From Psychrobacter sp. DM4 (GTDB lineage: Bacteria; Pseudomonadota; Gammaproteobacteria; Pseudomonadales; Moraxellaceae), in contig NZ_CP195537.1 of NCBI RefSeq assembly GCF_051307035.1, forward strand, positions 1 through 32,000: DNA of 32,000 nt, written 5' to 3'. The position numbers and the translations under genes were made by a program. The notes below the pieces were generated by a model that saw nothing but the letters and a program-made list of their open reading frames with translations, had not been told where the DNA came from and searched no databases. This document shows, in pieces, positions 2,165-27,751 of this stretch (its first letter is position 1; every line of letters starts with the position of its first letter).

Positions 2165-2803
2165 ATGAAAGTAATTGCGGTATTGAATCAAAAGGGTGGC
2201 AGCGGTAAGACCACCATTGCAACGCATTTGGCACGAGGACTACAGCTAAAAGGTCATAGTGTGCTGCTGGTAGATAGTGACCAACAAGGTAGTGCGCGTG
2301 ACTGGAGAGCAGTTGATGAAGACAATCCGGTCCCAGTGATTGGACTTGATCGGCCGACGCTGGATAAAGATTTAAAATATGTGTCTGATAAAGAGTACGT
2401 GGTGATTGATGGGTCACCCCAAGCGACCAGTCTGGCCATTTCAGCTATTAAAGCCGCTGACTTCATCTTGATACCGGTTCAGCCTAGCCCCTACGACATA
2501 TGGGCGACCAGCGATTTGGTTGACTTGGTGCAGCAGCGTATAGAGATGATGGATGGCAAACTAAAGGCTGCTTTTGTCGTGTCACGTGCTATTCAAAACA
2601 CCAATATAGGTAAGGAAGTAGCGACAGCACTACTCGATTATAACCTTCCAGTGTTAGAGACCAGAGTGATGCAGCGTGTTGCTTATCCTAACAGTGCTGC
2701 CCTTGGTAAAACAGTATTTGATACCGAATCGCCTAATAGCAATGCGATACAAGAGATAAGCGCATTGGTGAGTGAGATTCAAACATTTTTTAGTGAGGAG
2801 TAA
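2165..2803 (+). CDS. parA: ParA/ParF-type partition ATPase (type Ib, no N-terminal HTH)
   Basis: Carries the deviant Walker A motif in VLNQKGGSGKTTIATHLA, followed by LLVDSDQQGS and a VVIDGSP-type Walker B region. It is 212 aa long and is immediately followed by a small gene. Confidence 0.9.
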   Translation: MKVIAVLNQKGGSGKTTIATHLARGLQLKGHSVLLVDSDQQGSARDWRAVDEDNPVPVIGLDRPTLDKDLKYVSDKEYVVIDGSPQATSLAISAIKAADFILIPVQPSPYDIWATSDLVDLVQQRIEMMDGKLKAAFVVSRAIQNTNIGKEVATALLDYNLPVLETRVMQRVAYPNSAALGKTVFDTESPNSNAIQEISALVSEIQTFFSEE

Positions 2804-2806
2804 ATC

Positions 2807-3016
2807 ATGAGTTTATCAGCAGGTCGTCCAAGTAAAAAATCTAAGGATGAATTGGCTTTGTCGGATGTGACCGACAGTCCCAAAAAAACGGTACGAGTGA
2901 ATTTTAACCTAGATGAAGATAAGCACATTGCGCTCAAACGATACGCGCTTGAAAGCCGGAAAACAGTTACTGAGCTGTTGACCGAAATGATTGAAGAAAA
3001 GCTGGTTGAGCGGTAA
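2807..3016 (+). CDS. Small ParG-like ribbon-helix-helix centromere-binding protein (69 aa)
   Basis: The ATG lies 3 nt after the parA stop, with GAGGAG inside the parA 3' end. It has a basic, disordered-looking N-terminus (GRPSKKSKDE) and a C-terminal beta-alpha-alpha pattern, RVNFNLDEDKHIALKRYALESRKTVTELLTEMIEE. Size and position match type Ib partners. Confidence 0.6.
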   Translation: MSLSAGRPSKKSKDELALSDVTDSPKKTVRVNFNLDEDKHIALKRYALESRKTVTELLTEMIEEKLVER

Positions 3017-3252: not shown

Positions 3253-6123
3253 ATGCTTGACGTTCATCCATCAAAGAAAAAAGCCATTGAGCACCACCGA
3301 GGCCCGCTATTGATCATTGCGGGCCCGGGATCTGGGAAAACTTATACCCTAGTTGAGCGCATCATGAACCTCATTCATGTACATAGTGCAAAACCAGAAC
3401 AGTTGCTTGTTGTTACTTTCACAGAAAAAGCGGCGCAAGAGCTGAAGACGCGTATTTCTAATCGCTTGTTAGAACTAGGGTCTTTGTTCAATGTGAACGA
3501 GATGTACTTGGGGACATTTCACTCGATATGTTTGCGCATTCTCGAAGAGTATCGCGATTTCACGCGACTTAAGCGCAGTTTTGTGCTTATGGATCAGTTC
3601 GATCAACAGTATTTTTTGTATCAAAGACTACGCGATTTTAAAGATATCGAGGGCATAGAACATATTCAAGGCGAGCACAAGATTCCTGCATGGGCAAAGT
3701 CTGAGAATCTGCTTGGTTGGTTAAATAAGGCGTCAGAAGAGGTTCTTGATATCGACAAACTGGTTGCTTCACCAGATGAAGCGATCTCTGCGCTTGGCGA
3801 GGCCTATAAGGTTTATCAAGAGCTTTTATTGAATGAGAACGCCTTAGATTTTTCTTGTATTCAACTTGAAACACTCGTGCTTCTGCAGCAGCATCCACAT
3901 ATCTTGGAAGAATTGACTACTAAAATTACTTATTTGATGGTTGATGAATATCAAGATACTAATACCATTCAAGAGTATTTACTGCAGCTATTAATGGGTG
4001 CCAAGCGTAATTTGTGTGTAGTGGGAGATGACGACCAAGCTCTTTATCGTTTCCGCGGTGCAAGTGTGCGAAACATCCTAGAGTTTCCAGCTCAGTTTGC
4101 TCCAAATGAGTGTGAACAAGTAAAGTTATCGATTAATTATCGTTCGCACCCTGATATTGTTAACTTTTACGACTCATATATGGGAGATAAACCTTGGCTA
4201 CGCGAAGGTGTTAATTATCGTTATGCTAAAACAATACGCCCGCGCGATGGTGAGTTTAAAGCAGGGCCTACCGTCGTCAGTGCGATTACACCAGAAGGTG
4301 ATGATTGGCATGAAGACGTCTACCAAATTCTCATGCATCTAAAACAAAACGGTAAACTAACGGACTGGAATCAAGCAGCATTTTTATTTCGTTCCGTGAA
4401 ATCAGATAAGGTTCGAGCACTTGCTCAGTCTTTAGAAGAGAAAGGCATTCCGGTTTATTCTCCGCGTGCGAATCTATTTTTCGAGCGAGAAGAAATCTGT
4501 TACATGTTAGGTGCGTTTAATTTGGTTTTCCCTATGGTGATGGCCGAGCGTAAGAAAAAAATAGCTGATGGACGTAAGCTCCCTATATGGGATTATTATA
4601 CCAATCATTGCTTAGCACCGTTTATAGCCAAGTTAAAAGAACCAGAACAAGCAGATTTGCTCAGATGGTGCCAGCAAAAAGCGAAAGCGCACATAGGTCT
4701 AACCAAGAATGCTGATTCAGCTTTTCTCGGCCTGTTTTATGAGTTATTGCAGTTTCCTTTATTCTCAAACTACCTTGAACAACACAGCGGCAACGAACGC
4801 GCTCAGCGTAACCTTGCTCAGCTAAGTCGAATGCTTGGTAAGTTTGAATATTTGCACCGAGTCAGTGTTCTGAACCCCAAATACTTACTGTCTAACCTAA
4901 CGTCCTTATTTGATAATTTTCTAAAATTTTTATTTGAAGGGGGGATAGATGAATACGAGGATATGTCCGAATATGCACCATCAGGATGCGTGTCCTTCTT
5001 AACCATTCACCAGTCTAAAGGATTAGAATTTCCGATTGTTTTTGTCGGTTCACTTGAAGGTGTTCCGCGTAAACAATACACCGACCTTGATGAGATTATT
5101 GAACATCAATACATGGCCAAACCTCCTTTTGAGCCACTAGATGACACTAAGTATTTCGATTTTTGGCGTTTGTTCTATACCGCTTTTTCGAGGCCGCAAA
5201 ACTTATTGGTCCTAACAGGGCAAGAAAAATCAGGACATGGCAAAACACCTTCCAGACATTTCACGGATTACACCACACAGCTACCTTATTGGCGCGATGT
5301 AAAGCACAAGCTTGCTGAAATAGAGTTCGAGCAAGTAAAAGATGTGAATATCAAGCATGAGTATGCCTTTACCTCTCACATTACCTTATTCGAGACCTGC
5401 GCAGAGCAATATCGATTATTCAAAGAGCTCGAGTTCCAACCTGTAAAGGCAAGCCCTATGCTATTTGGTACTTTAATTCATGAGACCCTAGAGGATGTCC
5501 ATAAGTCGGCAATTCGTGGTGAAACGGATATACTCACGAAAGATAATATTAAAAGTTGGTTACTGAGTAACTACGAGAACTTAGCTAATCGTGAACGTAT
5601 GTATTTAGGGGAGTCGACATTAGGTGCGGCACTAAAACATGTAATGCGTTATGTCGAGCGAAAGGGTAGTGATTGGTCCGACATACAAGAAACTGAATTT
5701 GATATCTCGTTAGTCAAAGAACGTTATGTGTTAACCGGTAGCGTAGATTTGATTAAAGGGGAAGGAGACAGCGTTGAGATCGTTGATTTCAAATCAGAGC
5801 GTAAGCCAAATATGGAAAAAGACAGAGAGCGCATCTTGCATCACCAGCGTCAGTTAGAAATTTATGCGTATTTGGTAGAAGCAAATAGCGATTACAAAGT
5901 TAGTAAGATGCATTTGTATTTTACTGGCGAAACAACCGGCTTACCGACCATTAGTTTTAATAAAAACATCTCAGCAATTGACCATACTATTCATCAATTT
6001 GATAGTATTGTCGACAAAATTGAAAGCAAAGATTTCTCACTGAAAGCTCGACCAGATAAAACCTGTGTAGATTGCAGCGCACGCGCCTATTGCGACCGAA
6101 AAAATTGGACATTTTGTGCTTAG
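3253..6123 (+). CDS. UvrD/PcrA-family SF1 helicase fused to a C-terminal 4-Cys PD-(D/E)XK (Cas4/AddB-like) nuclease
   Basis: Helicase motifs: AGPGSGKT (3319-3342), VVTFTEKAAQEL, GTFHS, DEYQDTN, VGDDDQALYRFRGA, INYRS, TIHQSKGLEFPIVFV, YTAFSRPQNLLVL. C-terminal nuclease motifs: ETCAEQY, GTLIHETLE, VDLIKGEGDSVEIVDFKS, QLEIYAYL, CVDCSARAYC. Confidence 0.85.
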   Translation: MLDVHPSKKKAIEHHRGPLLIIAGPGSGKTYTLVERIMNLIHVHSAKPEQLLVVTFTEKAAQELKTRISNRLLELGSLFNVNEMYLGTFHSICLRILEEYRDFTRLKRSFVLMDQFDQQYFLYQRLRDFKDIEGIEHIQGEHKIPAWAKSENLLGWLNKASEEVLDIDKLVASPDEAISALGEAYKVYQELLLNENALDFSCIQLETLVLLQQHPHILEELTTKITYLMVDEYQDTNTIQEYLLQLLMGAKRNLCVVGDDDQALYRFRGASVRNILEFPAQFAPNECEQVKLSINYRSHPDIVNFYDSYMGDKPWLREGVNYRYAKTIRPRDGEFKAGPTVVSAITPEGDDWHEDVYQILMHLKQNGKLTDWNQAAFLFRSVKSDKVRALAQSLEEKGIPVYSPRANLFFEREEICYMLGAFNLVFPMVMAERKKKIADGRKLPIWDYYTNHCLAPFIAKLKEPEQADLLRWCQQKAKAHIGLTKNADSAFLGLFYELLQFPLFSNYLEQHSGNERAQRNLAQLSRMLGKFEYLHRVSVLNPKYLLSNLTSLFDNFLKFLFEGGIDEYEDMSEYAPSGCVSFLTIHQSKGLEFPIVFVGSLEGVPRKQYTDLDEIIEHQYMAKPPFEPLDDTKYFDFWRLFYTAFSRPQNLLVLTGQEKSGHGKTPSRHFTDYTTQLPYWRDVKHKLAEIEFEQVKDVNIKHEYAFTSHITLFETCAEQYRLFKELEFQPVKASPMLFGTLIHETLEDVHKSAIRGETDILTKDNIKSWLLSNYENLANRERMYLGESTLGAALKHVMRYVERKGSDWSDIQETEFDISLVKERYVLTGSVDLIKGEGDSVEIVDFKSERKPNMEKDRERILHHQRQLEIYAYLVEANSDYKVSKMHLYFTGETTGLPTISFNKNISAIDHTIHQFDSIVDKIESKDFSLKARPDKTCVDCSARAYCDRKNWTFCA

Positions 6124-6160
6124 TTTTAGCTAAGTACTTCGAATATTAAGAGAATAAATC

Positions 6161-7981
6161 ATGTCAAACGACCAGATCAATGTAGAACACTACAAATTTG
6201 AGCCCATCAAAGGCTACCCGATGCTGAACTGGCAAGGCAAACGCCCTTTCCGTTCAACACAATACTTCCCCGCTCAACTCAAAGAAGTCTATGGTCAAGA
6301 GGATGATTCAGGCTGGATTAATAAGATTTTCTGGGGTGATAATCTTCAGGTCATGAGTCATTTGCTAAAAGAGTTCCGAGGTAAGGTGGATTTAATTTAT
6401 ATCGACCCACCTTTTGATTCAAAAGCGGACTATAAAAAGGTGATAAAACTCAAGGGTAAAAGTATAACAAACGATGCGAATAGTTTTGAGGAAAAGCAAT
6501 ATACCGATATTTGGTCTAATGATGATTATCTTCAATTTATGTATGAAAGATTAGTTGTTGCTAAAGAGTTATTAGCTGAAGATGGAAAAATAATTGTTCA
6601 TATAGACTATCGAAAGTCCTCACATATAAAATGCATTATGGATGAAGTTTTTGGTTTCGATAGATTTAGAAATGAAATTATTTGGCATTATTCAGGCTGG
6701 CTTAAAGCCAGTACATCTCAATTCGCGAGAAAACATGATAACTTATTGTTCTATGTGAAGAATGATACAGCAAAGATTAATATTACTTATGAGTCTTGGG
6801 TGGATGCTTATTCATTAAAAGAGCTTAAGAAAATGCAGTTTGGTAAAGACACTAAAGGTGATTTCTTTATTGATAATAATCAAAAAATATATTTAATGGA
6901 TATTCTTTCTGGATACTTAGCAAACCGTAAGCAAGCAGTACATGAAGATGATATAGGACAGTTTGTATATGCTGATGGTCGTAATACTAATAAGAGATAT
7001 TTAAAGGATGTGTTGCTTGGAGGTAAAGCTGTAGATGATGTATGGGATATCAAAGCATTAACAACCTCAGCAAATGAGCGAGTAGGTTACCCTACACAAA
7101 AACCTGAAGAGTTAGTTGAGCGTATCATTGAGGCTTGTAGTAATAGTGGTGGATTAGTTTTTGACTTCTTTATGGGCTCAGGAACAACTCAAGCAGTCGC
7201 TCATAAGTTAGGGCGCAAGTTTATAGGTGCTGATATAAACTTAGGAGCAGTTCAAACAACAACTAAAAGGTTATCAAAAGAAAAGGCTAACTTTGAAGTT
7301 TTCAATGTCAATAATTATGAAATTTTCCGCAATCCAGTTGAAGCAAAAGAGTTACTCATAGAAGCTCTAGAAATTCAAAAGCTCGATGCAACTTCAGTCT
7401 ACGACGGTGAAAAAGACGGCTATAAAGTCAAAATAATGCCGGTTAACCGCATTGCGACTAAAGAAGACTTGAATGAGTTAATCGCAAACTTCCCTTACAA
7501 GCAATTTGAGTCGCGTAAAGAAGCCAACCCAAACCAATCAGTAGAAGAAATTATGCTGGTATGTATGGGACATGAGCCAAGTTTAGGGGCAACACTAGAG
7601 AATGAATCAGGCTATAAACTTAAGGTTCAAGTGGTTGACATTCTTCGCGACAAATCTGACCTAACGTTCAAGTACGATTCAGAAGCTGCTATAAAGATCG
7701 AAGGCAATAAATTAGTCGTTGAAGCCTTCTATCCACGTAACTTACTTCAAAAGCTTAGCCAACAAAAAGATGACGTGGAAGAGTGGCGTGAGATGGTCGA
7801 GTCCATAATGATTGACTGGAACTTCGATGGCGCGGTTATGGAACCTGTAGTAATAGATATCCCACCTAAAGATGAATTTGTCGTTGGTGAATATGAGATC
7901 CCAGAAGGTGCTAGCAACATCAAGGTGAAGATCACTGATTTACTTTCGGAATCTTACGAGGAGGTGATCGTTCATGGCTAA
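6161..7981 (+). CDS. Type III Mod-like (beta-class) DNA methyltransferase, probably N6-adenine
   Basis: Motif IV LIYIDPPFDS (aa ~82) precedes motif I VFDFFMGSGTTQAVAHKLGRKFIGADIN (aa ~336), which is the beta-class order. A ~250-aa region separates them (candidate target-recognition domain) and a ~240-aa C-terminal extension follows. The stop overlaps the res ATG. Confidence 0.85.
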   Translation: MSNDQINVEHYKFEPIKGYPMLNWQGKRPFRSTQYFPAQLKEVYGQEDDSGWINKIFWGDNLQVMSHLLKEFRGKVDLIYIDPPFDSKADYKKVIKLKGKSITNDANSFEEKQYTDIWSNDDYLQFMYERLVVAKELLAEDGKIIVHIDYRKSSHIKCIMDEVFGFDRFRNEIIWHYSGWLKASTSQFARKHDNLLFYVKNDTAKINITYESWVDAYSLKELKKMQFGKDTKGDFFIDNNQKIYLMDILSGYLANRKQAVHEDDIGQFVYADGRNTNKRYLKDVLLGGKAVDDVWDIKALTTSANERVGYPTQKPEELVERIIEACSNSGGLVFDFFMGSGTTQAVAHKLGRKFIGADINLGAVQTTTKRLSKEKANFEVFNVNNYEIFRNPVEAKELLIEALEIQKLDATSVYDGEKDGYKVKIMPVNRIATKEDLNELIANFPYKQFESRKEANPNQSVEEIMLVCMGHEPSLGATLENESGYKLKVQVVDILRDKSDLTFKYDSEAAIKIEGNKLVVEAFYPRNLLQKLSQQKDDVEEWREMVESIMIDWNFDGAVMEPVVIDIPPKDEFVVGEYEIPEGASNIKVKITDLLSESYEEVIVHG

Positions 7982-10658
7982 GAACGCCCAAGACAACTTC
8001 GAGTTAAATAACTCGTTTTACGTCCACTTGCATGAATTCTATAAAATTCATCGAGGCACCATACGTAAAAATTACACTCGTCTAAGTAAAGCCTTCTTAG
8101 ACTTCAACGAGCCATCGCGCCCCGGTAGCTTTCTACGTGTGCCTCAGTTCGAAGCTCTAGAAATCTATGTATTCCTAAAGGAGTTCTTAGATAACAAACC
8201 CGTCTTCCAACTATTTGAAGATTGGTATACCAACCAAGGTAAATTTGCAGAGCGAGTATCCGGCATAAGCACTATAGATGGCCAGATCATGCAAGGGGAT
8301 ATGTTCTGGGAGATGTCTGAAACAGACTATAAAGGCATTTTCAAAAAGATGAAAGCCAGTAACGGCGGCCGCCTTTACCCGAACTATATTTTTGCGCTGA
8401 CCATGGGTACTGGAAAAACTATCCTCATGGCCACCTGTATCTTCTATGATTTCTTAGCGGGTAATAAAAAAGGCAAAGATGAGCGTTTTATTCAAAACGC
8501 GCTAATTTTCGCACCGGACAAAACCGTTCTTCAGTCATTACGCGAAATTGAATCCTTCGATCATTCTAAAGTCGTGCCGCCGGAGTACATGCCAATTGTC
8601 GCGGAATTCAAATTTCACTATCTCGAAGATGCTGGTGTCTCGCTCAACACCATGGACGGCTCTAAGTTCAATATCATCGTATCGAATAGCCAGAAAATCA
8701 TCTTACGCCGCGATAGCAAAGGTAAGTCGACGGCCGATAAGCTCTTCAGCTCTGGCAAAGACATGTACCAAGGCCTTGGTGGTGTAGAAGATGAAGCGAT
8801 GGCTATGCTTGGCCTAGATGATGATTCTATCGCTGCCGCGCCTCAAGATGAAGCAGATCTTGTCACTAACCAACGTTTCGAGAAAATCAAGCGGCTTCCT
8901 CAGTTAGGTATCTTTGTTGACGAAGCCCACCACGCATTTGGTGCAAAGCTTGCCAAAGACATGGGTATAAAAGCCGATAATACGGCAAACTCATTGCGCA
9001 AAACAATTGATGAGCTCGCGATAAATTTGAAACAAGCCGGAACTCGAGTGGTGGGGTGTTATAACTACACTGGTACGCCTTATGTAGGTAAAGATGTGTT
9101 GCCAGAAGTGGTTTATGCCTATGGGTTACGCAAGGCGATTGATAACAATTACTTGAAGCAAGTTAAGCTTAATGGCTATAGCAATACGCGCCACGAGGAG
9201 TTTTTAGAGATAGCCATCAATGATTTCTTAGCAAAGGCCGATGAGATTGGACGCCCTGAGAATATACTGCCGAAGATGGCAATTTTTGGTACGACTGTCG
9301 AAGAATTGACGACTGAAATTCGTCCGGCTGTAGAAAAGATACTAGCGAAGCACGGCATATCTTCTGACCGTATATTGATTAACGTCGGTGACGCAAAACA
9401 CACCACTGATGATGATATCCGCGAATTCAACCGTCTAGATAGTCCGAACTCAGAAAAACAGTTCATCTTACTGGTGAATAAAGGCCGAGAAGGTTGGAAC
9501 TGTCGTTCTCTGTTTTCAGTCGCGCTTTATCGTGAACCAAAGTCTAAGGTGTTTATACTTCAAGCGACTATGCGTTGTTTACGTGCCATAGGTGACAGAC
9601 AGCATGTTGGCCATATTTATCTTACTAAAGAAAACATGGCACTTTTGGATAAGGAGCTTCAAGCGAACTTCCGTATCTCAACAGATGAACTTAAAGAACC
9701 TGATCCGAATAAGGAAACGGTACATGTTAGAGTTGAGCAGCCAAGTATCAAGGTGCCAATCAAACGCGTTCGTCGTCAATTCAAGTTAATTGGAAAAGAA
9801 GATTTAAAAGATGGGTATAAGTTAGGGCTTGATAGAGTTGATCTTGATGACTATCGACTTATCCATGAAACCCAGCAAGGGCTATTAATGCCTGATGATA
9901 TTGGAACTGTGAAAAATCGTGCTCGACAAGATCTTTCTTTCCTAAAAGAGCAGCGTACTTTTACCAAACTGTCATTAGTTGCTGATATCGCTCGATATAT
10001 TAATAAACCTTGTTTAGAAATTGAAAAAATTGTCGCAGCTACAGAAGAAGGCTTTGACGGTATCTTAGAGTTGGTGAACAAGTTCAATGAAGTACTGTAC
10101 GACCAAGTGATTCCGCGGCTTTTTAAAGCGATGTACGATATAGAGTCGGAAAGTGTTACTGAAGAGTTTGATGTTGAGTTAGTGAAAGAGCCACCTATAG
10201 ACCCTGGGTATTATCCAGTAACCGTCTCCAAAGATAAGATTATTAGAAAATCATCTTTAGAAATTGCAGAATTAACAGGGAAAAGCTTCCACCTAGACAA
10301 CTACTGTTTCGATTCAAATCCAGAACGTCAGTTCTTTTGGGATATGTTACACGACAAACAAGTTGATAAGATTTGGTTTACCGGAATGTTAACGCATGGA
10401 CAAAGTGACTTTGTGATTCATTACGTAGACACAGAAACGCAGCGCGTACGTAGTTATTACCCTGACTTCCTGATTAAAAAACAAGATGGTTCTTATGTGA
10501 TGGTAGAAGTCAAAGGCGAGCACATGATTGACTCTCAAAACGTAAGAGATAAGAAAGATGCAGCAGAACTTATGGGCGTAGCGTCAGGTATTGGCTACGA
10601 AATAGTTACGGGTAAATCCGCAGACTCAGGAAGCTATGATCGAGCCTTTTTAAACTAA
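7974..10658 (+). CDS. Type III restriction Res-like subunit (SF2 DEAH helicase + C-terminal PD-(D/E)XK nuclease)
   Basis: Motifs: LTMGTGKT (8401-8420), FVDEAHHAFG, YTGTPY, and C-terminal YYPDFLIKKQDGSYVMVEVKG (10454-10519). The ATG overlaps the mod stop (ATGGCTAA) and follows GAGGAGGTG. Confidence 0.85.
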   Translation: MAKNAQDNFELNNSFYVHLHEFYKIHRGTIRKNYTRLSKAFLDFNEPSRPGSFLRVPQFEALEIYVFLKEFLDNKPVFQLFEDWYTNQGKFAERVSGISTIDGQIMQGDMFWEMSETDYKGIFKKMKASNGGRLYPNYIFALTMGTGKTILMATCIFYDFLAGNKKGKDERFIQNALIFAPDKTVLQSLREIESFDHSKVVPPEYMPIVAEFKFHYLEDAGVSLNTMDGSKFNIIVSNSQKIILRRDSKGKSTADKLFSSGKDMYQGLGGVEDEAMAMLGLDDDSIAAAPQDEADLVTNQRFEKIKRLPQLGIFVDEAHHAFGAKLAKDMGIKADNTANSLRKTIDELAINLKQAGTRVVGCYNYTGTPYVGKDVLPEVVYAYGLRKAIDNNYLKQVKLNGYSNTRHEEFLEIAINDFLAKADEIGRPENILPKMAIFGTTVEELTTEIRPAVEKILAKHGISSDRILINVGDAKHTTDDDIREFNRLDSPNSEKQFILLVNKGREGWNCRSLFSVALYREPKSKVFILQATMRCLRAIGDRQHVGHIYLTKENMALLDKELQANFRISTDELKEPDPNKETVHVRVEQPSIKVPIKRVRRQFKLIGKEDLKDGYKLGLDRVDLDDYRLIHETQQGLLMPDDIGTVKNRARQDLSFLKEQRTFTKLSLVADIARYINKPCLEIEKIVAATEEGFDGILELVNKFNEVLYDQVIPRLFKAMYDIESESVTEEFDVELVKEPPIDPGYYPVTVSKDKIIRKSSLEIAELTGKSFHLDNYCFDSNPERQFFWDMLHDKQVDKIWFTGMLTHGQSDFVIHYVDTETQRVRSYYPDFLIKKQDGSYVMVEVKGEHMIDSQNVRDKKDAAELMGVASGIGYEIVTGKSADSGSYDRAFLN

Positions 10659-10727: not shown

Positions 10728-10775
10728 AATCGGTGTTCATAATGCGTCAATTAGAACGTTAATCAATAGAGAGAA

Positions 10776-10811
10776 GTGTCCATATAAGTTGATTACAACC
10801 TATATGGACAC
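10776..10811 (-). terminator. Hairpin immediately after the DprA-like stop codon
   Basis: Perfect 11-bp arms GTGTCCATATA (10776-10786) / TATATGGACAC (10801-10811) with a 14-nt loop, 4 nt beyond the TAG at 10815-10817. There is no strong U-run on the minus strand. Confidence 0.4.
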
Positions 10812-10814
10812 TAA

Positions 10815-11807
10815 CTAGAAGCCTAGACCTACTTGCTCAGGTGTTGAAAGCCTTTCATTTGATTCTTTCAGGTTGCTAGGTAAGGAGCTATCTATATCCT
10901 TTGGGTTAATTACTATGGCTTGTGGACCATCTTCCTGTATGATTTGTCGATTTAAATCGTACTTAGGATTGTTCTGATAGTCTTCGTTATATATTACAGC
11001 CCGCTTAATACCATATTCTTTAGCTTTCTCCATAGCATGACGGGAACCACTATCTGGTTTAGGATTATTGGGATCAAGGCTTGTTTTACAATAACTAGCG
11101 CTCAATACGACTAAATCACTAAAAAGCGCTTGCAGACGATCTCTCTTTACATATCTACCTGCTTGTTCTCTAAAGTTAGCAGATGAAGGTGACGTTAAAT
11201 ACTCAGTAATTAGCAAACCTTGGTTTTCAACAATTTCACGAGCCAAATCTATGTTTTGAGCTGGTAAGATATTATTTAACGGGCTGGGTAAGATAGCAAC
11301 AGTTCGAGCGTTTAATGCTAGTGCCTTTCTATGCGAGATGCTATCACAGCCATCTGCTAAGCCACTGACAATTGTGGCATCTTGTTTTTTGATGAACTGT
11401 TCAACTACCAGGTTTTCATCAACCTCGGTTTCTTTATCTGGATTGAGCACACCAATAACAGCAACATTATAATTATCAGGAGATAGTAAATCCAAATCTC
11501 CTTTGTAGAACAAGAAGCTTGGGATATCACCTTTTTTCTTTAGTTCTCGACGAAGAGTTGGGTAGTTATCATCGCCTATTGCTACCACACCATCACAACT
11601 ATCGCCTAAGTTTTCAATCAAACGTTCAAGCCTAGCCTTCATTTCTAAAAAAGCTTGCTCTGTTACGCTGGCATCCTTTGCCGCAATGAGCTCTACAATA
11701 GCTTCATAAGGGATCTTAGTTGTTAGATTATTATTTAACCATGCCTCCCCTATACCTTTGAAGGTGCGAGCTGTTAAAACATTTAAAGCATGATCTGTTA
11801 TTTTCAT
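10815..11807 (-). CDS. Accessory DprA/Smf-family (SLOG superfamily) protein
   Basis: Contains the DprA Rossmann-core signatures NYPTLRREL, VAVIG, IVSGLADGCDSISHRKAL (11319-11366), TVAILPSPLNNILPAQN, GLLITEY, KRDRLQALFSDLVVLSAS and SGSRHAMEKAKEYGIKRAVI. The N-terminal ~70 aa include a KGIGEAW segment as in DprA N-domains. Confidence 0.8.
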   Translation of the reverse strand: MKITDHALNVLTARTFKGIGEAWLNNNLTTKIPYEAIVELIAAKDASVTEQAFLEMKARLERLIENLGDSCDGVVAIGDDNYPTLRRELKKKGDIPSFLFYKGDLDLLSPDNYNVAVIGVLNPDKETEVDENLVVEQFIKKQDATIVSGLADGCDSISHRKALALNARTVAILPSPLNNILPAQNIDLAREIVENQGLLITEYLTSPSSANFREQAGRYVKRDRLQALFSDLVVLSASYCKTSLDPNNPKPDSGSRHAMEKAKEYGIKRAVIYNEDYQNNPKYDLNRQIIQEDGPQAIVINPKDIDSSLPSNLKESNERLSTPEQVGLGF

Positions 11808-11845: not shown

Positions 11846-12523
11846 TTAGTTACGATTTGCAGCAAAAACTATTTCGTCTGGGAGGTCATCTGGAAACGTA
11901 TAGTGTGGTACACGAGCAATGCTAAAAAAAGTAACGTCCTTCGCACCACAATCTAATAGACATTGAATAGCATCTTCGTCTATATTGACATTTTTTGTAT
12001 AAATATCATCAATTAATAGTACGTGTTTTCCTCTTACTTTTTCCGAAATATCACAAGTATCTCTAGTAATACCGATATAAGGCATACTGCCACCTCCACC
12101 ACCTATTGAACTACGAGATAAGTGAGTGGTACAGGTATCAGTATGACGAACTATAAAGTCGCTACCATCCACTAATTTATTCTTCGAATGTATGACCAAC
12201 GGAATTATTTCTCTAATAGCTTCAGCAAACTTTAACTGTGTGCCATTGTAGGTATTGAGGTTTTTTGACCTAGGTACGACACATATAGTGACTTCATCAT
12301 CTTCTATATTAGATAGTATGCTTGAAAGTTCATTTGCAAGATTGAACTTAACTGAGTTTTTAGCAGCTAATAATTTAGATGGGTACTCATTACCAAACGT
12401 GTTTTTTAAAATATTAAGATAGTTAGGGTTACTAGGTTTATTAAGCCCATAATATGCACAGCGATAGAATGATTTTATATCTTTGTTCAAATACTCGTTT
12501 TTTACGATGGTGTATTGATTCAC
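11846..12523 (-). CDS. ComF-like type I phosphoribosyltransferase-fold protein with degenerate PRPP loop
   Basis: GKHVLLIDDIYTKNVNIDEDAIQCLLDCGAKDVTFFSIARV has the PRTase beta-strand plus acidic pair, but the usual T-T-G-x-T is replaced by TKNVN. CVVPRSK matches ComF-like proteins, and there is an unusual SSIGGGGGS loop. GTG start at 12521-12523 lies 7 nt after GAGGA. No N-terminal Cys cluster. Confidence 0.7.
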   Translation of the reverse strand: MNQYTIVKNEYLNKDIKSFYRCAYYGLNKPSNPNYLNILKNTFGNEYPSKLLAAKNSVKFNLANELSSILSNIEDDEVTICVVPRSKNLNTYNGTQLKFAEAIREIIPLVIHSKNKLVDGSDFIVRHTDTCTTHLSRSSIGGGGGSMPYIGITRDTCDISEKVRGKHVLLIDDIYTKNVNIDEDAIQCLLDCGAKDVTFFSIARVPHYTFPDDLPDEIVFAANRN

Positions 12524-12537: not shown

Positions 12538-13083
12538 TTATAAGCTGATCTTGGTTATGTTTTTATTTGGTATTCCAGCTATATTGGCGTGGAGTACTTC
12601 ATTCTCATCATCCTCAAAAACGAGAACCTTTGTAGAGCAAATATTGATTTCATTAAGTGCATATTGATACTTATTGTGTATATCCTTGCAAAAAAAGATT
12701 TTATCGAACAATTTAGCGCAGTTGTGATGATCAAGAAGCTGAATAACCCTTTCAGGAGAAGCTTTAGTTACTAAACATACCTTAGTAGTGTTCTTATTAC
12801 TAATTAAGAAATTAATTAGCTCTTTATTAAGGTAGGTATGATCTAAAAACTGTGAGTTATACCCAATCTTTTCTTTTTGGATTTTTTCGGCTAATACCTC
12901 ATCAGTGCAGTACTTATCAACCACTTCTTTAGTGATTCTTTTTACTACAGGAATTTTTATGTATGGCATGTAGGAATCAATTGCTTTTTTATAAGCTGAA
13001 TTATTAGCTTGGTCAGTATGAATCAAGGTGCCATCCAAATCGGTTAATATTGCTTGAATATTGTTCAATATATCGTGCCTCAT
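12538..13083 (-). CDS. HAD-superfamily hydrolase (phosphatase-like)
   Basis: Motif I is ILTDLDGTLIHTD, motif II LVTKAS, motif III a K in HNKYQ, and motif IV VFEDDENE. The track start at 13086 is TTG, so I use the adjacent ATG at 13081-13083. Confidence 0.8.
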   Translation of the reverse strand: MRHDILNNIQAILTDLDGTLIHTDQANNSAYKKAIDSYMPYIKIPVVKRITKEVVDKYCTDEVLAEKIQKEKIGYNSQFLDHTYLNKELINFLISNKNTTKVCLVTKASPERVIQLLDHHNCAKLFDKIFFCKDIHNKYQYALNEINICSTKVLVFEDDENEVLHANIAGIPNKNITKISL

Positions 13084-13141
13084 CAATAAGTACAGGCTAG
13101 CTTAGTGTATGGTCTATATCTATTCTACGAACTGTACCTAC

Positions 13142-14619: not shown

Positions 14620-14812
14620 AATAGGACCTATAAATTTCAAGAAGATAGTTTCTATTGATTGAACAACCTATGGATTACAGTATGATACATACTAATATAA
14701 TAGTCAATATATGAATAAATATAAATTCAAATAATAAATAAATTTTTAAGAGAACTAGATATCCAACTCTCTGAACCTATCAATAGACTATACCCAAAAC
14801 ATAAAACCTTTA

Positions 14813-14881
14813 AATGATAATCTATCTATCATTAGACTTTTTTATATTATTAAATGATAGTAATATCTTGTTATTATCAAT
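14813..14881. promoter_or_regulatory. Two inverted-repeat sites built from AATGATA half-sites (candidate res/operator) in the divergent intergenic region
   Basis: Site A: AATGATA (14813-14819) + 7 nt + TATCATT (14827-14833), perfect. Site B: AATGATA (14853-14859) + 15 nt + TATCAAT (14875-14881), 6/7. Both lie 40-105 bp upstream of the resolvase ATG. Confidence 0.35.
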
Positions 14882-14919
14882 GAGCACTAATTATTAAGTC
14901 TAAATAATAGAGGTGGGTT

Positions 14920-15513
14920 ATGACTGTTCGTATTTATGTGAGAGCCAGCACTAAGGATCAAGACGCTACCAGAGCATTGGCTGATTTGGTGGCTTTCAGT
15001 ACAAGTTATGATGATAACCATGTTGAGTACGTCGAGCATTTCAGTGGTACAAAGCTCGATAGACCATTATTAGCCAAGCTGCTAAAGGACGCTGAGCAAG
15101 GCGATATTCTACTGGTTGAAAGCGTGGATAGATTAAGCCGATTATCTCAAGATGATTTTGCAATTCTAAAGCAGCGTATCAAAGACAAAGGCTTGCGATT
15201 GGTGGTGGCTGATCTACCAACGACGCATACAGTTAATAATGGCATGACAGGTGAGATCCTAACAGTGATTAACCATATGCTGATCGACTTATTAGCAACG
15301 ATGGCAAAGCTTGATAACGACAAGCGTAGAGAGCGTATCAAGCAGGGATTGGCTAACAGTGGCTATAAGCCCTCCGGTAAGAAGCCTAATACAACGAAAC
15401 ACAATCGTATTAGAGAATTAGACAGTCAAGGCAATATGACAAAAGAGGAAATCGCTAAGGCAGTTGGTGTTGGCGTAGCTACTGTTTACCGGGTGTTAAA
15501 GCCAGGCTCATAG
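14920..15513 (+). CDS. Serine recombinase (resolvase/invertase family)
   Basis: RIYVRASTKDQD carries the catalytic Ser codon at 14947-14949. Also present are GDILLVESVDRLSRL and the C-terminal HTH TKEEIAKAVGVGVATVYRVLK. SD is AGAGGTGGG. Confidence 0.85.
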   Translation: MTVRIYVRASTKDQDATRALADLVAFSTSYDDNHVEYVEHFSGTKLDRPLLAKLLKDAEQGDILLVESVDRLSRLSQDDFAILKQRIKDKGLRLVVADLPTTHTVNNGMTGEILTVINHMLIDLLATMAKLDNDKRRERIKQGLANSGYKPSGKKPNTTKHNRIRELDSQGNMTKEEIAKAVGVGVATVYRVLKPGS

Positions 15514-15731
15514 CTGAGGTATTTTATTTTATTTTTGTTCATAAACAGCTGATATATAAGGCTTTACACGCGAGGCAAGAAGGCTTTATTTGCAGAAATA
15601 GGTACTCTATTACTACGTAGCTGTGTTAAGAACGGTGTATTTTCATCATTCAATTTCGTTCAATTATGCCCACTTAAAACGCCCTTCGATCTTTATCTAA
15701 AGACATCACAGCGTCATATAAAAATCGATTT

Positions 15732-15769
15732 AATGCAATGAGGCTTCATTATAATCATTATATTGCATT
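15732..15769 (+). promoter_or_regulatory. Candidate promoter/operator of the fic gene
   Basis: A perfect TATAAT (15750-15755) is bracketed by the 8-bp inverted repeat AATGCAAT (15732-15739) / ATTGCATT (15762-15769). Two ATAATCGCTT direct repeats follow. No convincing -35. Confidence 0.3.
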
Positions 15770-15819
15770 CATAATCGCTTTTCTGCAAAATGGCTTATCT
15801 ATAATCGCTTGAGCCACTC

Positions 15820-17403
15820 ATGATGAACACCCCTACCTCAGACCCTATTGGCGCAGCATGGCTTATCCGTCATGCAAGCATCGAGCTGGTTTCGCCTTTA
15901 TATGTCAGCAGTAGTATCGGTGGGCGCAGACAAACCTATAAAGACGGTGACGTCATTCATAACGCTTATCAGGAAACCGCGCGTCCACTGGACACAATCA
16001 TTGCGCACTTACAATTTCACATGCGTCATGAAGTACTGAGTTTAGAGTTACTGACTCGTCTGTTTGAGCAGATAGGGGCTGATGATGTACAAGCATGGGT
16101 AAACGCTGAGCCCACAGGCAGCTATGCCCGTAGAATGGCTTTCTTGTATGAATGGCTCATGGGTCAGCAGTTAGCAGTACCGAGTAATTTAGGCGGTAAC
16201 TATGTGGACGCTTTAGATGCTAAGAAGCAGGTTACTTCAAGCCCTGCGCATGTCATCAAGAATGCTCGTTGGCGTATCAATGACAATCTAGCAGGAACCC
16301 GTCATTTCTGTCCGATACTGGTGAAAACAGAGGCCTTTACGCAAGCAGCTGCACTCGATATTGCCACAATGGTTGACAAACTTAACGATGAATTTGGGCA
16401 AGACTTACTGATGCGCGCCTCCGTATGGATGACCCTACGGGAAAGCAAAGCGAGCTTTACTATAGAAGGTGAGGGAAAAGAGTTAAAACGTATTGAACGT
16501 TTTGCCGATGTAATGGCACGGCGTACCGGCAAGGGCGATATTCCGCTTGATCCTGAGTCGCTAGCAGAGTTGCAACAAGAGATACTTGGTAGCAAAACGG
16601 TCATCCAGCAGTATGGCGTCCGTCAATCTCCAGTTTTTGTGTCGCATACTCAGGTCAATGGCTTTAAAGAGATTGTGCACTATATTGCGCCACCTGCTGA
16701 TGACATTGCTGAAAAGCTCAAAGGGTTACAGGCATTTATGGAAAAGACCGAGGGACAATCGGCACTGATACGTAGTGCGGTTGCTTCCTTTGCTTTTGTG
16801 TATATTCATCCGCTAGCGGATGGCAATGGCCGAGTACATCGCTTCCTAATTAACGATGTACTCAGACGCGACCAGATCATTCATGAGCCGATTATCTTAC
16901 CTATATCGCAAGCCATCGCTGAGCATCCCTCAGACCGTCATGCCTATGATAAAATTTTAGACCGTGTATCCGTGCCACTTATGGAGCAAATCCGTGATCA
17001 TTACAGCTTTGATAAACAAGCGATTACTTACCCTGATGGTATTCGCTCAAACTTAAATTTTGGAAATACTCACCTAATTCAACCTGCATGGCGCTTTATG
17101 GATCTAACGCCTCACGTTCAGTACTTATCAGGACTCATTGCTCATGTTATTGAAAAAGAGATGCATAACGAGTCACAGTACCTAAGAAAGCATGACCATG
17201 CACGACTGGCGATAAAAGAGATTGTTGAGATGCCCAACAGCTATGCCGATAGAATCATTCGCAGTATGCTGCAAAATAAGGGTGCTAAAAGTAATAAGTT
17301 ACTTAAGGATTATCCATTTTTAACAAATGATGAGGTTTGGGACGATATTTTCTCTGTCGTTGTAGAGACCTTTAAAGATGAGACAGATGAATTGAATAGG
17401 TAG
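15820..17403 (+). CDS. Fic/DOC-family protein (class II, internal inhibitory helix)
   Basis: The Fic motif HPLADGNGRVHR lies at 16807-16842 (aa 330-341). The alpha-inh-type motif SFTIEG lies at 16453-16470 (aa 212-217), N-terminal of the core. Confidence 0.85.
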   Translation: MMNTPTSDPIGAAWLIRHASIELVSPLYVSSSIGGRRQTYKDGDVIHNAYQETARPLDTIIAHLQFHMRHEVLSLELLTRLFEQIGADDVQAWVNAEPTGSYARRMAFLYEWLMGQQLAVPSNLGGNYVDALDAKKQVTSSPAHVIKNARWRINDNLAGTRHFCPILVKTEAFTQAAALDIATMVDKLNDEFGQDLLMRASVWMTLRESKASFTIEGEGKELKRIERFADVMARRTGKGDIPLDPESLAELQQEILGSKTVIQQYGVRQSPVFVSHTQVNGFKEIVHYIAPPADDIAEKLKGLQAFMEKTEGQSALIRSAVASFAFVYIHPLADGNGRVHRFLINDVLRRDQIIHEPIILPISQAIAEHPSDRHAYDKILDRVSVPLMEQIRDHYSFDKQAITYPDGIRSNLNFGNTHLIQPAWRFMDLTPHVQYLSGLIAHVIEKEMHNESQYLRKHDHARLAIKEIVEMPNSYADRIIRSMLQNKGAKSNKLLKDYPFLTNDEVWDDIFSVVVETFKDETDELNR

Positions 17404-17623
17404 AACAGACCCTGCTATATGCAAGAAAATCTGCCTTGATAATCAAGCTTAAGCTAGTATCAGTATCATCGTTGCGATAATGATTCGTTTATAAAAGATT
17501 CGGCTAAAATACTGTAACTTGAAACGTAATCAATATTTTTCTTACTTAAACAGAATATATTAGAGGAACTTTGATAACAGACCATTTTTATTTGACAAGG
17601 TTATTACAGATCCTCAAAATAAT

Positions 17624-17818
17624 TTTGAGTATTTGAGTATTTGAGTATTTGAGTATTTGAGTATTTGAGTATTTGAGTATTTGAGTATTTGAGTATTTGA
17701 GTATTTGAGTATTTGAGTATTTGAGTATTTGAGTATTTGAGTATTTGAGTATTTGAGTATTTGAGTATTTGAGTATTTGAGTATTTGAGTATTTGAGTAT
17801 TTGAGTATTTGAGTATTT
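17624..17818 (-). repeat. Perfect 24-copy 8-bp tandem array (minus-strand reading ACTCAAAT); candidate second centromere-like site
   Basis: GAGT occurs at 17627 and then every 8 bp to 17811 (24 boxes) with no mismatch seen. On the minus strand these are ACTC boxes with AAAT spacers. Confidence 0.95.
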
Positions 17819-17824
17819 ATTTAG

Positions 17825-18415
17825 CTATACAGCTATCAAATGACGCGAGCACTTAGCTGTAGCTTGTATTTCAGAATAACTACGCCCAGATTTCAGAAGG
17901 CTAGCGATAATCTTACGCTTCTCGGTATCTTTCCTACGTCCTGAATATTTACTTTCTACCTTAGTACGAGAAATACCTTACATCTGACGGTTACGTCGAT
18001 CTTCATAGTCCTTTCTAGCAATAGCAGCGAGCATATCAAGCATCATCGAATTAATGGACTGTAATACGCTGCTCATAAATTCAGTGCTGCTCTCAGATTG
18101 AGGCGTCATATAAGAGGTCGGTAGCTCTTCTGATACTACCGCCAGCTTCTTTTCTAATAGCATTCTTTTGAGAGTATCCCAATCAGCTTGGTTTAAACGT
18201 GCTAAGCGGTCAATCTGCTCAACCAAATTATATCGCCTTCATGGGCATCATTTATCAGTTACATTAACTGTGGACGTATTAAAGTTGCGTCTGACTCGTT
18301 TTCAACATAGAAGGCGGCAATTTTGTGACCATGATCAGCAGCAAGCTATATGAGCTCACTTTTGGCACGCTTGGCATCTTGATCTTTGATTGGCGCTCTA
18401 TGCTCTGATAAACAT
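17825..18415 (-). pseudogene. Decayed serine resolvase gene
   Basis: The reverse-strand reading gives, in order:
- MFIRA, then a frameshift.
- APIKDQDAKRAKSELI, then TAG.
- LAADHGHKIAAFYVENESDATLIRPQLM, then TAA.
- LINDAHEGDII, then a 1-nt frameshift in a T-run.
- LVEQIDRLARL...YEDRRNRQM, then TAA (17978-17980).
- GISRTKVESKYSGRR...SYSEIQATAKCSRHLIAV, then the stop at 17825-17827.
This is colinear with the 14920 resolvase at roughly 30% identity by eye. Confidence 0.8.
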
Positions 18416-18428
18416 AAACACCTAAAAT

Positions 18429-18475
18429 AGTCTGTTATAAGTAGTTCCATTATTGCAGTCTATTATAAGTAGACT
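18429..18475. promoter_or_regulatory. Direct 16-bp repeats upstream of the resolvase pseudogene (candidate relic res/operator)
   Basis: AGTCTGTTATAAGTAG (18429-18444) and AGTCTATTATAAGTAG (18457-18472) lie 28 bp apart. The second extends to the near-palindrome AGTCTATTATAAGTAGACT. Confidence 0.3.
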
Positions 18476-18790
18476 GTTAATTGATTAAGAGACCTGTTTT
18501 GATAGTGCCCCTGGGGTATACCCTACGATAACAGGAAAGCCATCGCGGATGACAAAACCTGTTTAGCTTTTAAACAAAACGGGTTTGTCGATAGTATGTA
18601 AGATAAGTTCGAAAAGTAACTGGAGTGTGAGACTATTCATACTGGGTCTGAATTAAAGTTTTATTGTGATTAATTTCTGCTCAATGTTATTCATTTGTCG
18701 CCACGATGAGTGATGGCGGCTTGTGATTTAGTTAGGAAAAATAATCTTGAGTAATAAGATACGTTTGTGGCATTTATAGCAGAGCTTGTT

Positions 18791-19153
18791 CTAGGCTTCT
18801 TTACTTACATTTTCCTGCAAGTTCTTTTTTAGTAAATGATCGAATATAAATGGGCCAAAAGGTAAGAGTGAGCCGAGTACGCCCGCAGGTATTGCCCAAA
18901 GAGGCATTTTCATTTTGATAGCTGAGCCTATAAGTATTATGATATAGGTAATAAACAACATACCGTGTGCCATACCGATGTATTTCACACCTTCTGGAAT
19001 GTCCATCATATATTTTAGTGGCATGGCGATGAAGAGCAATAATAAGAAAGAGGTGCCTTCTAGATAGCCTATAAGGGTAAGACTTTTTAACGCTGTCTCT
19101 TGTTTTTTTCTAAGGCTGTGAATTTTTTCAATAGTTGGCTGAGTCTGTGACAC
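18791..19153 (-). CDS. DUF3817-like small integral membrane protein
   Basis: IGYLEGTSFLLLLFIAMPLKY followed by GMAHGMLFITY is the pattern I associate with DUF3817, and there are 3-4 hydrophobic helices. GTG start at 19151-19153 lies 7 nt after AAGGA. Confidence 0.65.
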   Translation of the reverse strand: MSQTQPTIEKIHSLRKKQETALKSLTLIGYLEGTSFLLLLFIAMPLKYMMDIPEGVKYIGMAHGMLFITYIIILIGSAIKMKMPLWAIPAGVLGSLLPFGPFIFDHLLKKNLQENVSKEA

Positions 19154-19398
19154 TGTATTTTCCTTTTGTTATTATCAATAAAGAATTTATGGATTATTCA
19201 ATGTCTCTATAATAATGGCTCTACGCAGAGCTTTTAAGTATTGAGTTTTAAGACCTAAAATGAGTGAGTACCTATACCAGTCATACATTACCTTCCAGTT
19301 CACATTTTATAAACATACTCAAGTATAAAAAGTATTTTTCCGTATAGAGTGAATACGACGCTAGTTCATTTTGTTTGTGATAATCGGTATCAATGTGC

Positions 19399-20106: not shown

Positions 20107-20247
20107 AGTTGTTTCCTTTATCTATGTTTATACAATGAACAATGTTAAACGTATATGTTTTTGGTATACGATTATTAATCGCGCCACTTTCATAAACGGC
20201 TCCACTTACCGCTCTGGTATTATGAAACTTACGGTAATAATTTTTTA

Positions 20248-22094: not shown

Positions 22095-22147
22095 TTGCAC
22101 ATCTCCTCAACCTGAATGAGATCAGGACTATCGTTGTTCTTATTAGC

Positions 22148-22185
22148 CTCATTAAGTACGGTCAGGCTCATTAAGTACGGTCAGG
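22148..22185. repeat. 19-bp perfect tandem duplication at the 3' end of ccmG
   Basis: CTCATTAAGTACGGTCAGG occurs at 22148-22166 and again at 22167-22185. Confidence 0.95.
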
Positions 22186-24821: not shown

Positions 24822-24942
24822 ACGGTCTAACCTTATTTACTCTAATGCGGTTGCAGTTTACTGTAGCGGTGGAATTTTTATTATTAGAACCCACCCCCGA
24901 AATCTGCTGCTATCTCTAGTTTTTAATTGATTTCGAAGGGTT

Positions 24943-27129: not shown

Positions 27130-27154
27130 AATAATTTACCCTTTGAATAATGAT

Positions 27155-27185
27155 ATTATGAACCCTATAGTGGCTTTAGAGTCAA
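27155..27185 (-). promoter_or_regulatory. MerR-type promoter/operator of cadA (19-bp spacer)
   Basis: The minus strand reads TTGACT (27180-27185), then 19 bp, then CATAAT (27155-27160). The spacer carries the dyad ACCCTATAG-TGG-CTTTAGAGT (7/9). It lies 26 nt upstream of the cadA ATG, with AAGGG as SD. Confidence 0.7.
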
Positions 27186-27271
27186 GGTTATTTATCTACA
27201 GTTTCGTAATTTTAATTTCTCTAGCGCTAGTCTTTACAGCCACTTTAATTATTTAAATCATAGAGGTTGTT

Positions 27272-27682: not shown

Positions 27683-27751
27683 TGATATCAGTAGTGTTCA
27701 TTTCTGACGGATCAAATCATGAAAGGTTAAATACGCCCTGATGTTAAGCAC

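Follow-up and report, generated by a model that had tools for sequence, protein, structure and literature searches.

Why does a helicase–nuclease gene sit directly upstream of a restriction-modification (R-M) pair on a bacterial plasmid? The question is raised by the first 32,000 nucleotides of contig NZ_CP195537.1 (Psychrobacter sp. DM4, assembly GCF_051307035.1, forward strand), a stretch that we call the window, in which three closely spaced plus-strand genes in the list of open reading frames (ORFs) encode products of 956, 606 and 894 amino acids (aa): HelNuc (3253–6123), Mod (6161–7981) and Res (7974–10658). Together, these genes form what we call the triad. Type III R-M enzymes read an asymmetric site, methylate one strand and cleave in an ATP-dependent reaction that needs two inversely oriented unmodified sites. 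An earlier note on this DNA took Mod and Res for a type III-like pair; HelNuc it read as either integral to the system, as its third component, or independent and merely parked upstream. We propose that the triad is a three-gene type III-like R-M operon, carried as mobile defense cargo, in which Res makes ends or nicks and HelNuc processes them. Taken whole, this statement could as easily prove wrong as right, and most of its uncertainty lies in the post-cleavage step assigned to HelNuc.

The layout itself suggests a single unit. The trio spans ~7.4 kb on a small plasmid, with catalytic sites intact throughout, and the gene coordinates, tight packing and 37-bp gap given in the earlier note agree exactly with the ORF list. 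That gap, the plus-strand spacer between HelNuc and Mod (6124–6160), carries a Shine–Dalgarno-like AAGAG before the ATG. At the mod/res junction (7958–7981, plus strand), the Shine–Dalgarno sequence GAGGAGGTG (7958–7966) lies upstream of the res ATG at 7974, and mod closes with TAA at 7979–7981; the 8-bp overlap of the two genes at 7974–7981, ATGGCTAA, is as the note had read it. Consensus scans of the window found no terminator-like site at the HelNuc–Mod or Mod–Res junction and fewer promoter-like sites over the region (13) than in shuffled sequence (21.3). Across 69 triads, the HelNuc–Mod junction is mostly a 4-bp or 1-bp overlap or a spacer of <40 bp, and Mod and Res overlap by 8 or 11 bp in most. 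Judged from these junctions, the genes of a triad usually appear to be translationally coupled, and the trio looks co-transcribed and co-inherited, bringing together two motors, two nucleases and one methyltransferase. The note had counted two helicase–nuclease polypeptides and one methyltransferase; all of the motifs it named are present in the translations, and the families match.

Evidence that HelNuc belongs with Mod and Res comes from its distribution. A search for Res proteins returned >5000 relatives (clusters). We scanned one genome per species with an alignment of 14 Res relatives, which gave 319 confirmed loci; the best 80 were kept with 10-kb flanks and compared by tblastn with the three window proteins, and all of our samples are centered on Res. 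These 80 loci come from Pseudomonadota (Alpha-, Beta- and Gammaproteobacteria), Desulfobacterota, Chloroflexota, Cyanobacteriota, Acidobacteriota and Myxococcota. Full-length HelNuc lies upstream of Mod–Res on the same strand in 70 of the 80, and in one more it is present but cut by a contig end; five are not assessable because the upstream DNA is absent, three have only a HelNuc remnant, and one lacks HelNuc, with Mod also decayed. Of the 75 genome loci that can be assessed, 71 (~95%) thus have HelNuc upstream and in the same orientation, across six phyla. The same holds for 25 of 26 assessable loci on viral and proviral contigs in IMG/VR, where Res identity falls as low as 42%, and among PLSDB plasmids full-length HelNuc adjoins Res in all 14 records that have a full-length Res. 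Annotated triads include those of Vibrio pVAS19, an E. coli island beside an integrase gene, Tunicatimonas (Bacteroidota) and Enterococcus (Bacillota).

HelNuc and Res have also diverged in step: over all pairs of 68 intact triads, their identities correlate at r = 0.98, with medians of 64% and 62%, respectively. The genes around the triad vary from locus to locus, and clustering of the flanks found no universal fourth gene; the mobile unit is therefore the trio. A distant Res (27% identity) in Ideonella occurs in res–mod order without HelNuc, so the HelNuc link is specific to a clade rather than an effect of defense islands. A Bacillus cereus plasmid has a HelNuc of 41% identity ahead of a canonical TypeIII_RM_meth Mod and a Res of another lineage (ResIII 4e-29), and in Priestia HelNuc lies upstream of even larger Mod and Res proteins. 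The Bacillus cereus pairing indicates that HelNuc partners type III systems generally, in agreement with an earlier comparative study (PMC5704561). HelNuc is not a chance neighbor; it forms a conserved unit with Mod/Res across many phyla. The earlier note had proposed asking whether Mod/Res homologs usually occur without HelNuc, and we found that they almost never do. Its suggestion of an integral third component gains support from this co-occurrence, from the correlated divergence, from the coupled junctions and from the invariant active sites of HelNuc described below, and its alternative of an independent gene parked upstream is disfavored by the linkage and co-divergence. For HelNuc itself, the note had put forward three conceivable roles: end processing, an alternative effector or anti-anti-restriction.

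A comparison with a related plasmid shows how the triad is carried. Positions 14777–32000 of the window are 97% identical to the Psychrobacter plasmid pPspP11G5a (NZ_CP012534.1, L123; L-numbers are our labels for loci), and the shared Psychrobacter backbone includes a resolvase, Fic, lspA, ccmFGHI-like genes, a heavy-metal P-type ATPase, cadR and lnt. Upstream of that resolvase is a slot that pPspP11G5a fills with S and R subunits of a type I R-M system, a SIR2 gene and IS3 elements, not with the triad and its neighboring Shosta operon. Because the contents of this slot differ between the two plasmids, we regard the triad as variable defense cargo.

HelNuc (3253–6123, plus strand) combines a UvrD-type superfamily 1 (SF1) helicase with a C-terminal Cas4/AddB-like PD-(D/E)XK nuclease and a four-cysteine iron–sulfur (Fe–S) module. 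Its Pfam matches are UvrD-helicase (3e-72), UvrD_C (3e-16) and PDDEXK_1 (1e-21, aa 708–948), its NCBIfam match is TIGR00372 cas4 (6e-14), and its closest solved relatives in a PDB sequence search are UvrD and PcrA (1e-53), followed by AddA and RecB. PADLOC profiles for GajB match aa 5–305, at 6e-60. The motifs AGPGSGKT, VDEYQDT, VEIVDFK and QLEIYAY are all present in the translation. Across 68 triads, Walker A (AGPGSGKT, aa 23–30; 3319–3342, plus strand) is 97–100% conserved, helicase motif II (DEYQD, aa 231–235; 3943–3957, plus strand) is 99–100% conserved, and GDDDQ and motif V/VI are likewise essentially invariant. Every residue of the nuclease core (H743, E747, D748, H750, K751 ... D845-F-K847 ... 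Y871; 5479–5865, plus strand) is 100% conserved. So is each of four cysteines that are the predicted Fe–S ligands: C716 (5398–5400) and the three of a CxxCx5C motif (CVDCSARAYC; C938, C941 and C947; 6064–6093, plus strand). Such a four-cysteine module is a hallmark of the Cas4 family, a group of Fe–S PD-DExK nucleases, one member of which is characterized as a 5'→3' exonuclease according to the title of a reference cited in that work (PMC5704561). By its domains, four cysteines and type III Mod/Res neighborhood, HelNuc fits the UvrD–Cas4-like fusion family (the pfam12705 branch).

Mod (6161–7981, plus strand) is a beta-class N6/N4 amino-methyltransferase of the type III Mod type (Pfam N6_N4_Mtase, 1e-47). 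PADLOC matches it with MTase_III at 5.5e-53 and slightly better with a Type II MTase model at 3.8e-58, and of the sequences in the PDB, EcoP15I Mod (4zcf_A, 2e-23) matches it best. Its motifs follow the beta-class order, with DPPF preceding FMGSGTT: catalytic motif IV (DPPF, aa 82–85; 6404–6415, plus strand) is 93–99% conserved, and in the S-adenosylmethionine-binding (AdoMet) motif I (FMGSG, aa 337–341; 7169–7183, plus strand) F337 and G339 are 100% and G341 99% conserved. Between them lies a hypervariable center, a predicted target-recognition domain (TRD; aa ~181–300; 6701–7060, plus strand), where column identity is 8–26%, compared with 55–91% in the flanking parts; the C-terminal region (aa 390–600) is conserved at 58–73% identity. 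A hypervariable center between conserved catalytic halves matches the TRD pattern of type III Mods. On sequence features, Mod thus looks like a type III enzyme in its beta-class motif order, its central variable TRD and the position of mod directly upstream of res. At one locus (L103, 4262–7989), two tandem mod genes with different centers stand between HelNuc and Res, the first of them split into ORFs 4262–5437 and 5491–6042, which looks like TRD turnover or a multi-mod locus.

Res (7974–10658, plus strand) joins a superfamily 2 (SF2) DEAH motor to a C-terminal PD-ExK (TnsA-N-like) endonuclease, as assigned from Pfam and AlphaFold. ResIII scores 23.7 bits against a cut-off of 22.5, and Tn7_TnsA-like_N scores 26.4 bits, just under its cut-off of 26.5. 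The translation contains MGTGKT, VDEAHH and YYPDF...VMVEVKG, and the DEAH and PD-(D/E)XK motifs that the earlier note had picked out are invariant across triads: Walker A (GTGKT, aa 145–149; 8406–8420, plus strand) is 94–100% conserved, motif II (DEAH, aa 316–319; 8919–8930, plus strand) and the endonuclease motif (P830-D831 ... E845-V-K847; 10461–10514, plus strand) are 100% conserved, and motif VI is also essentially invariant. A first AlphaFold model from 14 sequences had a mean confidence (pLDDT) of 59 and gave only generic SF2 matches, and it was replaced by a 61-sequence model with a pLDDT of 74. The top fold match of the second model among 1203 is EcoP15I Res (4zcf_C; E 1.8e-10, TM 0.31/0.42, 559 columns), with SauUSI, Type ISP and HsdR motors scoring below it. 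In one locus, from a Dechloromonas metagenome-assembled genome (L039), Mod and Res form a single 1554-aa ORF, either a natural fusion or a sequencing frameshift.

How does this compare with what is known? In a comparative study in BMC Evol Biol, Hudaiberdiev et al. (2017) placed the UvrD–Cas4-like fusion in a monophyletic branch of pfam12705, found its commonest neighborhood to be type III Mod/Res, sometimes with WYL or helix-turn-helix (HTH) regulators, and a second context with Dcm/Vsr, and predicted an ancillary role in defense (PMC5704561). Their fusions have the same architecture (SF1 UvrD, pfam12705 nuclease and four cysteines) and the same neighborhood as HelNuc; the study was comparative only and named no mechanism. 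Murray et al. (2021, PLoS One) then described N4-methylcytosine (m4C) type III systems; in two of them, Eco86II and BspHIV, a conserved gene for a helicase-like ATPase lies 5' of mod (PMC8259958), giving the order ATPase, mod, res that is also that of the triad. This arrangement occurs in >500 genomes; methylation proceeds without the extra helicase, and that of Eco86II was undetected in a partially purified fraction that still cut ~25 bp from the site (PMC8259958). The earlier note was thus right that the triad departs from the textbook type III layout, but the departure is not new, having been reported in both studies (PMC5704561, PMC8259958). What we add is detail on a kind of system that is already known: the Psychrobacter-type plasmid locus, the ~95% linkage, the correlation of 0.98, the junction overlaps and the motif invariance. 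Our literature search found no later experimental work on the HelNuc–Mod–Res trio.

The classical enzymes EcoP1I and EcoP15I share with the triad a mod–res operon, a beta-class Mod with a central TRD and a Res with an SF2 motor and C-terminal PD-ExK nuclease. The triad differs in its third gene, in an extremely diverged Res with a conserved ~130-aa N-terminal extension, and in a Mod with a short TRD, a conserved ~220-aa C-terminal region and no TypeIII_RM_meth Pfam match. AddAB and RecBCD likewise place a UvrD-like motor and a RecB-family nuclease in one chain, and the Fe–S nuclease of AddB and Cas4 resembles that of HelNuc; however, HelNuc is a single 956-aa chain for which we identified neither a partner subunit nor a Chi-recognition apparatus, and it is encoded with restriction genes rather than serving as a housekeeping repair enzyme. 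The UvrD/SF1 helicase core is also used in phage defense by Gabija GajB, Nhi and Hna. GajB, however, is without a Cas4-like nuclease, and Nhi and Hna work by themselves, unlike HelNuc with its link to Mod/Res. The comparison with GajB and Nhi drawn in the earlier note is one of generic UvrD-fold resemblance. Membership in Gabija was rejected, as the GajB profiles cover only a generic UvrD core and HelNuc has no GajA-like gene next to it. We also rejected membership in MANTIS (Gao_RL), a BREX-related system of four genes (MtsA, an AAA+ ATPase; MtsB; MtsC, a methyltransferase; and MtsD, a helicase–nuclease) (bioRxiv 10.64898/2026.09.23.753747). MANTIS resembles the triad in combining a methyltransferase, two ATPases and a helicase–nuclease effector, and it follows a hemimethylation logic and depends on inverted sites (bioRxiv 10.64898/2026.09.23.753747), but the triad has three genes only, and an AAA+ or MtsB-like ORF is absent.

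We envision the following sequence of events. Mod, probably as a Mod2 dimer, would read a short asymmetric site and methylate host DNA, as N6-methyladenine (m6A) or m4C. It would also load Res, whose ATPase would trigger long-range communication and the cutting of unmodified DNA. HelNuc would then act as a dedicated accessory, entering at the ends or nicks made by Res, unwinding 3'→5' and degrading the invader, which would make restriction irreversible and independent of host RecBCD or AddAB. Because HelNuc is built like a one-chain AddA/RecB, processing of ends or nicks from Res is its most likely task. The dispensability of the Eco86II helicase for methylation and cutting would fit a post-cleavage step, if Eco86II has the same arrangement. 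The fuller form of this proposal makes HelNuc a true functional partner, to which the site-specific Mod2Res event would be handed as to a built-in RecB-like shredder; a single cut or nick would then bring processive destruction of the invader, independent of host RecBCD/AddAB and hence resistant to phage RecBCD inhibitors. We hold that form tentatively, as somewhat less likely than not; it might also relax the rule of two inverted sites.

Several observations weigh against this proposal. Some concern Res. PADLOC REase_III gives only 4e-4 on it, and no other PADLOC model matched; neither phmmer nor a 61-sequence profile found a PDB sequence match; hhalign of Res against EcoP1I Res returns a probability of 10% and aligns only helicase motifs V–VI, at colinear positions; and the nuclease domain is TnsA-N-like rather than RE_endonuc, with ResIII barely above its cut-off. 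Because Res only remotely resembles a canonical type III Res, type III mechanics are assumed for this system. We call the pair "type III-like", as the earlier note did: the description stands for Mod, for the overall architecture and for the motifs, but the likeness of Res to canonical type III enzymes in sequence is faint, and its membership is weakly supported.

Other observations concern HelNuc. Its post-cleavage role is argued by analogy. The extra gene of Murray et al. is described as an SF2 protein with no PD-ExK motif, whereas HelNuc is SF1 with a clear nuclease. A blastn search in distant mode with HelNuc, Res and the VG888 HelNuc matched just three of 5426 E. coli genomes (VG888-46E9, AH21 and F3_13_1_3), and NCTC86 is not among them; a common family for HelNuc and the Eco86II/BspHIV helicase could not be shown. 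Acinetobacter plasmid matches to HelNuc proved to be generic UvrD proteins at 43% query coverage and were set aside as uninformative on BspHIV. One locus (L035) has intact Mod and Res with only a 51-aa remnant of HelNuc, showing that the pair can survive the loss of HelNuc at least for a while. Finally, HelNuc-like proteins of ≤31% identity stand alone in Fusobacterium and Halomicrobium.

Among the other explanations, the one that survives best makes HelNuc an obligate co-effector: Mod2Res would find unmodified sites and translocate along or nick the DNA, and a double-strand break or productive restriction would require HelNuc, for example through unwinding from a Res nick. Two inverted sites, which classical type III enzymes need, might then no longer be necessary. 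The near-absolute co-occurrence and the translational coupling would suit such a dependence, as would the atypical character of Res for a type III enzyme, and the conserved aa 390–600 of Mod could provide an extra docking surface. Yet the PD-ExK motif of Res is 100% conserved, and Res is therefore presumably a nuclease in its own right; in Bacillus, HelNuc accompanies a canonical type III Mod/Res pair, a kind of system that needs no partner to cut; and Eco86II, if comparable, cut DNA in a fraction without its helicase. We therefore consider an obligate role unlikely, although it deserves more weight than the explanations that follow.

HelNuc might instead serve the host, either by repairing self-inflicted breaks (restriction alleviation) or by promoting recombination after the system is acquired. 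Type III hemimethylation leaves unmethylated sites after replication, and the AddA/RecB-like architecture of HelNuc would suit a repair enzyme. Hudaiberdiev et al. indeed proposed a role analogous to that of RecB/AddB nuclease domains in recombination (PMC5704561). A purely protective factor would, however, be expected with many types of restriction, whereas HelNuc keeps to type III Mod/Res and, reportedly, Dcm/Vsr, and it travels with restriction genes on plasmids and in defense islands, which makes a host-serving function improbable in our view.

Slimmer still is the chance that HelNuc is an independent single-gene defense like Nhi, Hna or GajB and just happens to lie upstream of an ordinary Mod/Res pair within a defense island. 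Its N-terminal half has strong GajB matches in PADLOC (6e-60), the window is a defense island with Shosta and a Fic/PDC-S24 gene nearby, and distant HelNuc-like proteins do stand alone. Those matches, however, reflect the generic UvrD core, with GajA absent, and ~95% of assessable loci, from several phyla, keep this gene order on one strand, with a divergence correlation of 0.98, overlapping junctions and flanks that differ completely. The Ideonella Res without HelNuc points to a clade-specific link, and co-occurrence largely refutes this explanation. We give very little credence to a last alternative, in which the module is not primarily for restriction but is an epigenetic regulator or a plasmid-addiction module whose nucleases punish loss of methylation: the module does lie beside partition genes on plasmids (ParA and a small ORF are upstream in both the window and an Annamia plasmid), and type III Mods can, according to the literature, act as phasevarion regulators, but conservation extends to both motors and both nuclease sites, the hypervariable TRD is what diversifying selection by invaders would be expected to produce, chromosomal islands and proviral contigs carry the module too, and no repeat tract was noticed in the translated mod, for which no repeat search was run.

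Beyond the three genes, individual loci differ in their neighbors and in their parts. A divergent ~1100-aa protein is encoded ~150–350 bp upstream of HelNuc on the opposite strand in 21 of 69 triads (L014–L018, L024, L025, L036, L039, L041, L043, L049, L052, L054, L055, L059, L064, L065, L069, L070 and L074). It has Sacsin/GHKL-like and NOV_C domains and matches PADLOC TmtA (Tiamat) at up to 2e-68. The divergence of this TmtA-like protein tracks that of HelNuc (r = 0.87), yet it is absent from 16 closely related triads; it could be an optional fourth partner or a system that travels with the triad. Six loci have a gene for a WYL-domain regulator directly upstream of HelNuc, often with a 4-bp overlap (L020, 4314–5246; L004, L019, L029, L034 and L042), matching the WYL/HTH regulators reported by Hudaiberdiev et al. 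(PMC5704561). In five loci, a ~1420-aa DpdJ/MkoA-like helicase (PADLOC 2e-40) follows Res by 27–48 bp (L064, 12670–16938; L016, L017, L029 and L036). A universal fourth gene was rejected, since the TmtA-like, WYL and DpdJ/MkoA-like neighbors are each limited to subsets of loci. A subclade at ~45–49% identity has a gap of ~0.8–0.9 kb between HelNuc and Mod (L112, L102, L107–L109 and L116), which in L112 (5257–6060) contains an extra 267-aa ORF. On the Geminocystis plasmid pGM01 (L002, 7286–9403), a HelNuc homolog of 53–64% identity is a pseudogene broken into small ORFs; its island contains a dGTPase and an anti-phage dCTP deaminase, and Mod/Res are not nearby. The Annamia dubia plasmid (L089, 4541–5432) has the order ParA, small ORF, HelNuc, with Mod reduced to a 36-aa remnant and Res gone.

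In the window, the triad is flanked by a partition pair and a Shosta operon. Directly upstream of HelNuc (2165–3016) are a ParA partition ATPase (NF041546, 1e-81) and a 69-aa ORF (2807–3016) whose product, on reading its sequence, appears ribbon-helix-helix-like. Convergent to the triad on the minus strand are ShosA (10815–11807; PADLOC 1.9e-48), with a strong hairpin of 17-bp stem after the gene (10775–10812), and a ShosT-like gene (11846–12523; PADLOC 6.5e-12). A HAD-family hydrolase gene (12538–13086, minus strand) lies 14 bp upstream of the ShosT-like gene and is read in the same direction, pointing to a Shosta variant of three genes. Farther along, a 527-aa Fic-domain protein (15820–17403) matches PADLOC PDC-S24 almost end to end (3e-176) and SoFic at 3e-21. 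On the Tunicatimonas plasmid (L084, 4740–6877), a phosphoribosyltransferase gene and a DprA-like gene, together Shosta-like, lie directly upstream of a triad, and a weaker DprA-like match adjoins the triad of L018 (13485–13949). A specific link between Shosta and the triad was nonetheless rejected, with three such loci, including the window, among the 80 genome loci and few plasmid loci scanned; Shosta beside triads is probably a matter of co-location in defense islands.

Type III enzymes are the least understood of the classical restriction systems, and here a third enzymatic gene accompanies a large subset of them, with >5000 Res clusters in at least eight phyla, on plasmids, in islands and in proviruses. 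Because the association of the three genes was already reported in 2017, what remains of interest, to a moderate degree, is the job of the third gene. The locus is well suited to testing whether a DNA-degradation stage is built into restriction systems. The outcome would bear on the ways in which phages evade restriction, among them RecBCD inhibitors and single-orientation sites, and on how type III is defined in defense annotation pipelines, where the models we scanned recognized the Mod and Res parts only. If HelNuc does take over from Mod2Res and shred the invader, then triads such as this one would constitute a distinct and widespread type III subclass that is coupled to a degradation enzyme.

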